Position numbers and translations under genes: made by a program
In this document: one piece after another, positions 16 through 5,771 of the stretch
How the letters are laid out: each line of letters begins with the position of its first letter
Position numbering within the stretch: the first letter of the stretch is position 1
Virus record (IMG/VR): IMGVR_UViG_3300046777_002520
Span: 1 to 64,000 of that record
Source of the DNA: a virus
Direction: 5' to 3' (one strand)
Length of the DNA stretch: 64,000 bases
Notes under the pieces: model-generated
Databases searched by the model: none
The model's input: the letters and a program-made list of their open reading frames with translations, nothing else
Told to the model about the DNA's origin: nothing

Positions 16-116
16 TTCAAGGTTACCGATCACCGAGTAGGAGTGTCTGAAAGACACACCAAGGTGCAACTCCTTGGCGGTGATATGCTTCCTTAACTGG
101 AAGTAGTTGGTTGTTG
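16..116 (+). repeat. Structured constant repeat, copy 1
   Basis: ttcaaggttaccgATCACCGagtaggaGTGTCtgaaaGACACaCCAAGGtgcaactCCTTGGCGGTGATatgCTTCCttaactGGAAGtagttggttgttg. Confidence 0.95.
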
Positions 117-166
117 GGCGAGGTTTGGTGAGGCACGATGTGGTGTGTCTCGGTCGGGCGCGTCTT

Positions 167-267
167 TCCAAGGTTACCGATCACCGAGTAGAAGTGTTTA
201 AAAAACACACCAGAGTGCAACTCTCTGGCGGTGATATGCTTCCTTAACTGGAAGTAGTTGGTTGTTG
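167..267 (+). repeat. Structured constant repeat, copy 2
   Basis: Same as copy 1 but with compensatory stem changes GTGTT/AACAC and CCAGAG/CTCTGG. Confidence 0.95.
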
Positions 268-327
268 GGCGGGGTGGGGCTCGTAGTGGCAAGGTCTGGC
301 GAGGCGTGTCGAGTTTTGGCGCGTCTC

Positions 328-428
328 TTCAAGGTTACCGATCACCGAGTAGGAGTGTCTGAAAGACACACCAGAGTGCAACTCTCTGGCGGTGATTTAC
401 TTCCCTAAGTGGAAGTAGTTGGTTGTTG
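328..428 (+). repeat. Structured constant repeat, copy 3
   Basis: GTGTC/GACAC and CCAGAG/CTCTGG stems; last hairpin is TACTTCC-ctaagt-GGAAGTA. Confidence 0.95.
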
Positions 429-483
429 GGCAGGGTATGGCACGTCGCGGTCGGGCGGGTCGCGGTTTGGCGCGACGCGGTGC

Positions 484-551
484 ATCAAGACTCCGATCAC
501 CGAGTAGAAGTGTCTGAAAGACACACCAAGGTGCAACTCCTTGGCGGTGAT
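484..551 (+). repeat. Structured constant repeat, copy 4 (only the three-way-junction part)
   Basis: atcaagactccgATCACCG...CGGTGAT; the downstream CTTCC/GGAAG hairpin is replaced by a terminator. Confidence 0.9.

Positions 552-5698: not shown

Positions 5699-5771
<73 letters not shown>

Follow-up and report, generated by a model that had tools for sequence, protein, structure and literature searches.

A predicted tRNA-like tail follows each guide of a phage VIPR array and may be read by host tRNA-processing enzymes

VIPR, presented in 2026 as an ancient CRISPR relative, is a CRISPR-related silencing system whose guide RNA (vrRNA) consists of YNNGG repeats and an invariable structured 3' tail (10.64898/2026.04.26.720920). 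Such a system is recognised by a gene for Vipr, a minimal RAMP protein, with a vap gene beside it, by a same-strand tract of about 9-16 pentamers (GGY/NN), and by an expressed vrRNA of roughly 100 nt that co-purifies with Vipr. The Escherichia phage SUSP1 carries a type II VIPR (10.64898/2026.04.26.720920), and its tail, as read in locus L126, is an H-type pseudoknot of about 40 nt (GTGG..CCAC, with the loop pairing downstream). The splitting of vrRNAs through staggered arrays and hammerhead ribozymes, the latter interspersed in arrays of types I and V, has been published (10.64898/2026.04.26.720920, figs S18-S20). The cutting of VIPR multi-guide transcripts into single guides is so far only partly known. 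Outside VIPR, in mascRNA/MALAT1, MEN-beta and mitochondrial punctuation, cleavage by RNase P and RNase Z is directed by a tRNA-like fold embedded in a longer non-coding transcript; mascRNA is 58-61 nt long, and its processing sets the ends of the neighbouring functional RNA. Xie et al. in 2015 reportedly engineered polycistronic tRNA-gRNA arrays for multiplex CRISPR, from which host RNase P and RNase Z release the guides.

We analysed positions 1 to 64,000 of the virus record IMGVR_UViG_3300046777_002520 (hereafter, the window), part of a 192-kb phage genome. On a single strand, the locus comprises tRNA-Thr, at least four units of trailer hairpin, YNNGG guide tract and 57-nt tail, a terminator, vipr, a candidate vap gene, tRNA-Arg and tRNA-Ile. 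The gene at 604-1266 (+, 220 aa) belongs to the RAMP/Cas7-like Vipr family, its family profile matching PDB 36pp_D 'SUSP1 Vipr protein' with an E value of 7.6e-9 over positions 26-196 of 214. A single-protein Vipr search of viral contigs gave no relatives, and a profile search was needed to find them; 530 Vipr homologues were found. The window Vipr is 35-41% identical to actinophage proteins adjoining GGC-NN tracts. The gene at 1272-1802 (+, 176 aa) is a candidate vap (vipr-accessory) by its position directly after vipr and a match to phrog_15946; it had no Pfam domain match, and a gene of 150-176 aa directly follows vipr in all related loci as in the window. Tracts of GG with a period of 5 occur on the + strand only, at 117-161, 263-312 and 429-473, and elsewhere in the whole genome the pattern has one short match per strand; among about 110 homologous loci, nearly all have it on the vipr strand. 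Some of the pentamers are degenerate, as has also been described for VIPR (10.64898/2026.04.26.720920). Because the adjacent gene encodes Vipr and the variable tracts are YNNGG guides, the locus is, judged by its sequence, a phage VIPR system and the constant repeat the structured 3' tail of its vrRNAs. The initial annotation of the repeat had missed the real tRNA-Thr heading the array, and the VIPR nature of the locus had been suspected only in a companion note.

Repeat finding and TRF placed a constant block of 62 nt in four copies, at 26-87, 177-238, 338-399 and 493-554, with copy-to-copy spacings of 151, 161 and 155 nt. The contig break falls within the array: positions 1-28 hold the 3' part of a guide tract that the contig start truncates, with the constant linker ..CAAGGTTACCG before tail 1, and the 5' counterpart, a trailer, lies at the far contig end (191931-191966 of the genome, G000). 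Tail copy 1 (29-85) consists of the 7-bp closing stem, hairpin A, the T-arm-like hairpin B (6 bp, loop TGCAACT), a 7-nt junction AGTAGGA and a discriminator-like A. It is followed by trailer hairpin 1 (86-105, TGCTTCC-TTAACT-GGAAGTA), identical in sequence to the stretch 3' of the real tRNA-Thr, and by guide tract 1 (106-179), in which variable YNNGG pentamers stand between a constant start GTTGGTTGTTGGGC and the constant end ..CAAGGTTACCG. Next come tail copy 2 (180-236), trailer hairpin 2 (237-256) and the YNNGG pentamers of guide tract 2 (257-340). Tail copy 3 (341-397), trailer hairpin 3 (398-418, TACTTCC-CTAAGT-GGAAGTA) and guide tract 3 (419-495), again of YNNGG pentamers, precede the last tail, copy 4 (496-552). 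An intrinsic terminator (554-580, GTCCGTAC-ACAT-GTACGGAC and a T run), with counterparts 3' of the last tail in L011, L012 and L016, closes the array transcript. All these features lie on the + strand, all four tails are tRNA-like, and the window has exactly one tail 3' of every guide tract; the tail is kept where the guides are wholly different.

The layout shares with SUSP1 VIPR an invariable structured module immediately 3' of the YNNGG tract, one tail per guide on the vipr-vap strand, and a tail conserved while the guides vary (10.64898/2026.04.26.720920, 10.64898/2026.04.26.720927, 10.64898/2026.10.15.759431). However, the window tail is a 57-nt nested three-way junction that shares neither sequence nor topology with the SUSP1 pseudoknot, and the array, with a real tRNA at its head, lies upstream of vipr.

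The initial annotation had proposed that the stem ATCACCG/CGGTGAT encloses hairpins A and B in all copies, and each 57-nt core, folded alone, gave this same minimum free energy structure, a single three-way junction in 4/4, at -21 to -23.4 kcal/mol (z = -3.4 to -4.9; 0/200 shuffles as stable). Every stem variant listed there was recovered: hairpin A, GTGTC..GACAC in three copies (1, 3 and 4), takes the U-A form GTGTT..AACAC in copy 2, and hairpin B has CCAAGG/CCTTGG in the outer two copies (1 and 4) and CCAGAG/CTCTGG in the inner two (2 and 3). The separate hairpin after the tail was likewise found, as CTTCC-TTAACT-GGAAG or in its copy 3 form. When the whole 600-nt array was folded, tails 2 and 3 formed as predicted and tails 1 and 4 paired over long range with each other's identical strands, an expected artefact of folding repeats globally. 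Pairs were counted in the window tails and three relatives, which make up 7 distinct sequences; 98.5% of the cells were paired, compared to 34-60% with the partner columns slid, with double-sided changes at 3 pairs (1 in hairpin A, 2 in hairpin B), 2 mismatched cells, both in hairpin A, and no variation in the closing stem. The earlier claim of compensatory stem changes and selection on RNA structure thus stands, though at a strength limited by the 7 sequences: covariation at 3 pairs is suggestive and, because the sample is small, statistically not strong. The broader support for the fold comes from related loci, where pairing is partly built in because the wider tail set was gathered by a pattern that requires it. 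On the + strand, the constant repeat is a real RNA module that is structured and under selection.

The best interpretation of hairpin A is a stem of 5-6 bp with a 3-nt loop, GAA or AAA, which is AGC in L016, L119 and L120; C.A mismatches are tolerated in the stem, as L011 and L119 show. The UGAAA T-loop previously assigned to it is therefore not upheld, and of the two T-loop-like hairpins only B stands, since relatives have canonical T-arms at the equivalent place. The self-cleavage proposed at the same time would make the tail a ribozyme separating the guides, as hammerheads do in some of the VIPR arrays described above, and ribozymes are commonly built on three-way junctions. However, no ribozyme family (hammerhead, twister-sister or others) matched at E<=10 in the first 4 kb of the window or in 7 related loci. 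The tail has only about 15 unpaired positions, of which the few outside the T-loop show no conservation across the clade, and neither the loop of hairpin A nor the junction is constant, the acceptor-type stem and T-arm being all that the wider clade retains. A self-cleaving element is thus very improbable. The proposed likeness to cobalamin/FMN riboswitches and twister-sister is likewise replaced by a comparison with the top half of tRNA, the acceptor stem and T-arm.

As in tRNA (RF00005) and the 3' tRNA-like structures of plant RNA viruses, an acceptor-type stem of 7 bp is stacked coaxially and directly on a T-arm, here of 6 bp, and the 7-nt loop of hairpin B keeps the tRNA pattern of G53-C61, U54, C56, a purine at 57 and A58. 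A short variable hairpin, hairpin A, occupies the place of the D and anticodon arms. Loop position 57 is A in the window (TGCAACT) and G in the sister phage (TGCGACT), and tRNAs vary likewise; the invariance claimed earlier for this loop holds only inside the window. Scanning both strands of the 192-kb genome for a T-arm with its adjoining closing stem returned 8 sites only, the 4 tails and 4 real tRNAs, compared to about 0.3 sites per strand in shuffled genomes. The tail deviates from tRNA in lacking the D and anticodon arms, in having G in place of U55, and in a T-stem of 6 instead of 5 bp, which gives a helical stack of 13 bp instead of 12. The base preceding the closing stem is always G; bacterial RNase P favours U there. 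No tail matched the Rfam tRNA model, the mascRNA-menRNA family or any other Rfam family at E<=10 in the first 4 kb of the window and 7 related loci, and ARAGORN at default settings called no tRNA on the window tails. Judged by these features, the tail is a miniature tRNA look-alike corresponding to the acceptor stem and T-arm half. Two fuller models were rejected. A complete cloverleaf would need a D arm and a 7-nt anticodon loop, which the tail lacks, and it gained no Rfam or default ARAGORN call. If hairpin A were an anticodon arm, CUGAAAG would supply the anticodon GAA with U33 and A37; this conflicts with the 3-nt AGC loop of relatives, and ARAGORN takes it so only in mitochondrial mode at noise-level thresholds.

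Four real phage tRNAs cluster around the VIPR locus. A genuine tRNA-Thr(UGU) at the opposite contig end heads the array and is followed by a 36-nt trailer identical at 35/36 positions to the trailer after the tails; its 3' acceptor strand is CGGTGGC, compared to CGGTGAT in the tail. Downstream, on the + strand, a genuine tRNA-Arg(UCU) (1845-1919) lies just after vap, and a genuine tRNA-Ile(UAU) (1999-2073) is followed by a terminator at 2075-2097. The trailer of tRNA-Ile begins A-ATGC, as the trailers after the tails do, and those of other phage tRNAs also begin (A)TGC. CCA is encoded neither in the tail nor in this phage's own tRNAs. Such surroundings, and the stable tRNA-sized RNA that a 57-nt product would be if excised, could also fit a tRNA mimic with a job of its own, either a decoy for tRNA-targeting defences or a stable small RNA, that is merely co-transcribed with the guides; the tRNA top half is the part read by many tRNA-binding enzymes. 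However, the tail has no anticodon-like loop, and it cannot be a decoy for anticodon nucleases because the hairpin A loop is 3 nt long and variable. The element is, moreover, tied to Vipr loci and arrays throughout the subclade at a fixed position relative to the array or vipr, so that we consider an independent mimic quite unlikely.

In a sister phage, the locus is laid out as in the window, including a one-unit form of tRNA-Thr, trailer, guide, tail and terminator, and tails are 92% identical between phages that have nothing in common in their guides. Tail-bearing loci group in one Vipr subclade (support 95/93). Phages whose Vipr is 71-80% identical have one long staggered array with a single terminal tail before the terminator. 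In the close relatives L016, L119 and L120, a staggered array ends in one tRNA-like tail. L019, L022, L026, L121 and L125 (two copies) have canonical UUCGAnn T-arms, located either where the array ends or immediately upstream of vipr, in which a 6-bp T-stem is joined directly to a closing stem of 5-8 bp whose sequences are unrelated; ARAGORN calls the L019 element a tRNA. In L026 and L121, a lone tail stands between the upstream gene and vipr with no guide tract before it. Exact and gapped DNA patterns of the tail gave only chance matches, which lay in coding regions of unrelated organisms, among viral and metagenome contigs. The covariance model that the initial annotation had suggested building (R1, of the window-type tail) recovered close relatives alone and did not reach the canonical-T-arm tails of other lineages. 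A weak extra match of R1, in L059, lies in a coding region and was discarded.

Temperate phages often bear tRNA 3' fragments at attP, and the repeats might act as DNA or be decaying tRNA gene fragments, whether attachment-site remnants, iterons or packaging repeats. The contig break inside the array would suit this, and in L008 an attP-like tRNA 3' fragment lies next to an integrase; in L019, an integrase lies 1.2 kb from the element. However, the changes in the tails are compensatory and preserve pairing, and the 5' strand of the closing stem is present in every tail, unlike in attP fragments. Across Vipr loci, the motif scan gave a strict strand bias, with 48 matches on the + strand and 1 on the - strand. 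The array is preceded by a real tRNA and has a terminator after its last copy, and no integrase occurs near it in the window or in the jumbo relatives. A DNA role or decay is thus hardly credible.

On balance, we lean towards the reading that the tails are guide punctuation read by host tRNA 3'/5' processing enzymes, possibly also serving as a 3' cap. The array would be transcribed as one RNA, and host tRNA 3' processing (RNase Z/BN, or RNase E and exonucleases) would have to cut after the functional tRNA-Thr. Since the trailer of tRNA-Thr also follows the tails, an equivalent cut is expected behind each of them and would set the 5' end of the guide that comes next. In addition, the guide might be freed by RNase P acting at the 5' edge of the tail, which would resemble mascRNA/MALAT1 or the engineered tRNA-gRNA arrays; without this cut, the tail would remain as a tRNA-like 3' cap in the role of the SUSP1 pseudoknot. 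Among the three roles the initial annotation had offered, the 3' cap and the host-RNase signal fit both the evidence and the published structured vrRNA tail, and self-cleavage does not.

A retained 3' cap or handle might, on the other hand, be the whole function, marking where the Vipr filament ends or starts and blocking exonucleases, with the tRNA likeness incidental or a relic and no special part for host tRNA enzymes. The SUSP1 tail is retained at the 3' end, where the adjacent subunits are best ordered (10.64898/2026.04.26.720927), and a consensus tail was treated as needed for Vipr complex formation (10.64898/2026.10.15.759431); because the published tail is retained and caps the RNP, retention may be argued for here as well. 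The single tail 3' of each guide tract in the window and the linker between the last GG and the stem, constant at 6-7 nt in close relatives, also agree with a cap. However, Vipr loading cannot depend on the tail because the staggered arrays of phages with 71-80% identical Vipr give it to the last guide only, and the lone tails before vipr in L026 and L121 have no guide to cap. These single terminal and guide-less tails appear to favour processing over Vipr loading. The persistence of T-arm features across lineages in which all stem sequences change is hard to explain unless a tRNA shape is read. A cut after tRNA-Thr is required anyway, and the tails carry its trailer; a pure cap is also not needed because the terminator hairpin already protects the 3' end. 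We thus consider a cap alone unlikely, though less so than the alternatives discussed above.

Extending the punctuation reading, the whole VIPR subclade may mature its guides by tRNA mimicry, using a tRNA gene, truncated copies of it and host RNase Z and RNase P; we put this forward tentatively, as plausible but somewhat doubtful. Under such mimicry, the tail could also persist as a CCA-repairable tRNA-like 3' end. The structured vrRNA tail itself has already been described, and its tRNA likeness goes unmentioned there; the word tRNA is absent from the text of the VIPR preprints covered here, whose supplementary figures may still show such tails.

Like the hammerhead and staggered VIPR arrays, in which structured elements or fixed cut points split a multi-guide transcript without a Cas6-type enzyme, the window array would be divided by a structured element, but one that has no ribozyme signature and resembles a substrate of host tRNA enzymes. 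The systems of the mascRNA type are eukaryotic or organellar and use a full cloverleaf, whereas the window tail belongs to a bacterial virus, has neither D nor anticodon arm, occurs as tandem copies and forms part of an RNA-guided system in which cleavage is predicted. The engineered tRNA-gRNA arrays are a laboratory design with full tRNAs, and the present array, with a real tRNA at its head and truncated tRNA mimics after it, would be their natural counterpart. A CRISPR repeat hairpin with Cas6 is similarly a constant structured element between guides that delimits the units and may be retained on the guide; in contrast, the present locus has no Cas6 or other cas gene, its units are about 155 nt long, its guides use a non-contiguous pentamer code, and its element mimics a host RNA and binds no dedicated nuclease. 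The combination of a tRNA-half tail and a real tRNA head points to a third route for separating guides, through borrowed host tRNA-trimming enzymes. If so, it would explain how a two-gene system manages without a dedicated processing nuclease, would mean that viruses evolved a path to multi-guide arrays free of Cas6 and ribozymes, would provide a natural precedent for the tRNA-guide arrays of genome editing, and would suggest simple design rules for multiplexed VIPR guides.

The tail was probably derived from, or homogenised with, the neighbouring phage tRNA-Thr gene. The shuffling of hairpin variants among copies, read earlier as recombination or gene conversion, passed a four-gamete check (junction G/A against hairpin B type) with only four copies, which is consistent with gene conversion but is no proof of it. 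Near-identical phages differ in their number of units (1, at least 3 and at least 4), which shows that arrays at this locus grow and shrink by entire units.

VIPR, described in 2026 preprints, consists of the minimal RAMP protein Vipr, the accessory gene vap and vrRNAs, in which an invariable structured tail lies 3' of 9-16 YNNGG pentamers (bioRxiv 10.64898/2026.04.26.720920). The ORF at 604-1266 showed 35-41% identity to actinophage proteins adjoining plain GGC-NN period-5 tracts, and the Vipr profile A2, built from 40 homologues, matched the PDB chain 'SUSP1 Vipr protein' over nearly the full length (E 7.6e-9). Of ~110 homologous loci, nearly all had period-5 GG tracts on the vipr strand, those of the window lying at 117-161, 263-312 and 429-473. 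The constant repeat therefore represents the vrRNA tail of a VIPR system, and the guides make up the variable parts.

The phage contig is 191,966 bp long; the window covers its first 64 kb, in which a repeat search placed the tandem array at bases 11-553 with unit spacings of 151, 161 and 155 nt. Each unit comprises the constant 57-nt core (four copies, at 29-85, 180-236, 341-397 and 496-552), a small trailer hairpin (TGCTTCC-TTAACT-GGAAGTA) as its second part, a G/T-rich tract with a variable middle as its third, and a constant linker ending in ..CAAGGTTACCG as its fourth; a strong intrinsic terminator (554-580) lies directly 3' of the fourth core. The array spans both contig ends and has a real tRNA at its head, with tRNA-Thr and its trailer at the far end (G000:C1:191859-191966, or 1437-1544 of the contig-end piece L002) and the remainder of a guide at 1-28. 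Because assembly broke inside the array, four is a minimum copy number; direct joining of the contig ends would give a much too short guide, so the assembly probably lacks some units. The ENA scaffolds of the sister phage (L011) contain runs of N at the matching place. No site resembling a promoter was detected for the array. A hairpin lies between the stop codon of the upstream gene and tRNA-Thr in both phages (L002 1404-1436; L011 3279-3313); its stems are unlike (GGTCCTGCG/CGCAGGATC versus GGCCATGCAGTAC/GTACTGCACGGCC), no T run follows, and the hairpin may act in stability or processing.

Every core, folded alone, gave an identical three-way junction, in which ATCACCG/CGGTGAT forms the closing stem around hairpin A, of 5-6 bp, and hairpin B, whose 6-bp stem carries a 7-nt loop, with folding energies 3.4 to 4.9 standard deviations under shuffles, in agreement with the three-way-junction RNA proposed in the initial annotation, whose quoted sequence variants were all present in the window. 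The compensatory stem changes proposed there were also recovered, though from a small sample of seven sequences (alignment A3; four window copies and three distinct relatives), in which 98.5% of cells were paired, compared to 34-60% with partner columns slid, and double changes affected three pairs, of which one (C-G/U-A) lies in hairpin A and two (A-U/G-C) in hairpin B. The mismatches were two cells, each in hairpin A, and the closing stem was invariant within this close set. Of the two T-loop-like hairpins originally suggested, hairpin B has a T-arm-like loop, whereas a second T-loop in hairpin A was rejected because its triloop is not conserved.

The tail is a miniature tRNA, mimicking the top half of a tRNA rather than being one. 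Between hairpin B and the closing stem's 3' strand there is no spacer, an arrangement like that of the T-arm and acceptor stem in tRNA, and the hairpin B loop (U-G-C-A-A-C-U) retains the G53-C61 closing pair as well as U54, C56, the purine at 57 and A58, position 55 being the sole departure from the tRNA consensus. Position 57 is G in the sister phage, corresponding to the A/G choice at this position in tRNAs. In the 192-kb genome, a scan of both strands for a T-arm with an adjoining closing stem returned eight sites, namely the four tails and four real tRNAs, compared to ~0.3 sites per strand in shuffled genomes. However, the tail differs from tRNA in having neither a D arm nor an anticodon arm and in the variable triloop of hairpin A, and no tRNA model accepted the tails (Rfam tRNA model; ARAGORN). 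A decoding tRNA was rejected, as the tail has no anticodon loop. The genuine tRNA-Thr(UGU) at the opposite contig end has a trailer that matches, at 35/36 positions, the one behind the tails; the 3' acceptor strand of this tRNA, CGGTGGC, is similar to CGGTGAT of the tail. All four real tRNAs of the phage (Thr-UGU, Arg-UCU, Ile-UAU and a CAU tRNA) cluster in a 6-kb region around the VIPR locus and on its strand, including tRNA-Arg and tRNA-Ile directly 3' of vap (1845-2097, with a terminator at 2075-2097) and a real tRNA site at 5699-5771. None of the four encodes CCA, and the trailers of three start with (A)UGC.

The sister jumbo phage, with a Vipr 83% identical, kept the order of upstream gene, tRNA-Thr, trailer, guide, tail, terminator and vipr; by assembly it has one unit versus at least three, and the guides differ. 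Phages with Vipr 80% and 71% identical carry a single long staggered pentamer array with a lone, nearly identical tail at its extreme end, then a terminator; their tRNA-Thr lies 3 kb off and is followed by a terminator in place of the trailer. Remoter loci of the same Vipr subclade have acceptor and T-arm modules in which the loop is canonical (UUCGAUU, UUCGAGC or UUCGACU), the T-stem has 6 bp and the closing stem differs wholly in sequence; these lie at the array end in L019 and L125 and immediately upstream of vipr in L022, L026, L121 and L125, and the clearly homologous modules of L022 and L125 differ by three double compensatory changes. Pairing in this wider set is partly built in by the pairing-demanding pattern used to collect it; that pattern has no bearing on the strand bias of the matches across Vipr loci (48 to 1), on their fixed placement or on the canonical loops. 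The reading as an attP fragment or DNA repeat was rejected on account of the complete paired stems, the compensatory changes, the strand bias and the terminator. L019 has an integrase 1.2 kb upstream, and an attP role for that tail copy is conceivable.

In the Vipr tree, every tail-bearing locus fell inside one supported clade (95/93), and the three-way-junction type formed a group by itself (99/96). In one inner lineage the tail gives way to a plain hairpin or another structure, or is absent. The plain 11-bp hairpin (ATGATCACGAA..TTCGTGATCAT; L023 4745-4775, L030 1823-1853, L032, L036 and L037), the minimal acceptor and T-arm module of L026 (2883-2926) and the window tail have a GATCAC/GTGATC stem in common, making reduction of the plain hairpin from a tRNA-like ancestor plausible; the presence of this stem in three tail types hints at common descent or a sequence-specific reader.

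Release of tRNA-Thr requires a cut at its 3' end, and we propose that a single host activity (RNase Z/BN, or RNase E with exonucleases) would cut both there and after every tail, the cut after a tail producing the 5' end of the next guide. A common cut would be the simplest reading because the tails share the tRNA-Thr trailer. A self-cleaving element, as initially suggested, was rejected, since no Rfam ribozyme family matched at E<=10 and the clade keeps no conserved unpaired core. Minihelices of this kind are known RNase P substrates, and RNase P perhaps also cuts the 5' edge of the tail. The tail would then be discarded or be a separately stable 57-mer, paralleling mascRNA/MALAT1; without this cut, it would stay as a tRNA-like 3' cap, with the retained SUSP1 pseudoknot (10.64898/2026.04.26.720927) as its counterpart. 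The use of staggered arrays with one terminal tail by closely related Vipr, and the lone tails preceding vipr without a guide, argue for a probable role of the tail in processing or stability, not in Vipr loading.

VIPR, pentamer guides, the existence of a conserved structured tail, and ribozyme-separated and staggered arrays have already been published. The main texts of the 2026 VIPR preprints do not mention tRNA, and the sole tail they describe is the SUSP1 pseudoknot, which, as read in the SUSP1 genome, is unrelated to the window tail. The present locus adds a genuine tRNA at the array head with a trailer matching those of the tails, a three-way-junction tail form with a UGCRACU loop, varying unit number between near-identical phages, the capping of a staggered array by the same tail, and the assignment of tRNA-like tails to a single Vipr subclade.

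ARAGORN reported a 90-nt 'tRNA-Ala(GGC)' at L019 2838-2927 that consists of the last guide-array pentamers and the tRNA-like tail; tails of this kind may be mis-annotated as tRNAs in databases. A second conserved hairpin occurs just 5' of the tRNA-like module upstream of vipr (L022 2800-2845; L125 2830-2871), with compensatory stems (GCACGCGG/CCGCGTGC versus GCGCATGG/CCATGCGC) and a loop, CACCCUGCCA, complementary to the UGGCAGG delimiter recurring in the downstream staggered arrays; it could be an anti-delimiter RNA or form an internal pseudoknot. Unannotated VIPR loci were present in the cultured actinophages Mycobacterium phage Quico (L009 2095-2400) and Gordonia phage ODay (L007 3092-3254). 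The GGC-NN array of Quico lies upstream of the gene for its Vipr homologue and terminates in a junction-like fold (GGGGTG..CACCCC); within this fold, a CCGG-UGCAACG-CCGG hairpin has the UGCAAC loop in common with hairpin B of the window. Furthermore, several related phages encode a CsrA homologue (PF02599) at most a few kb from their VIPR locus (L010 7768-7965; L016 6487-6687; L021 776-1117; L119 2106-2306; L121 150-347).
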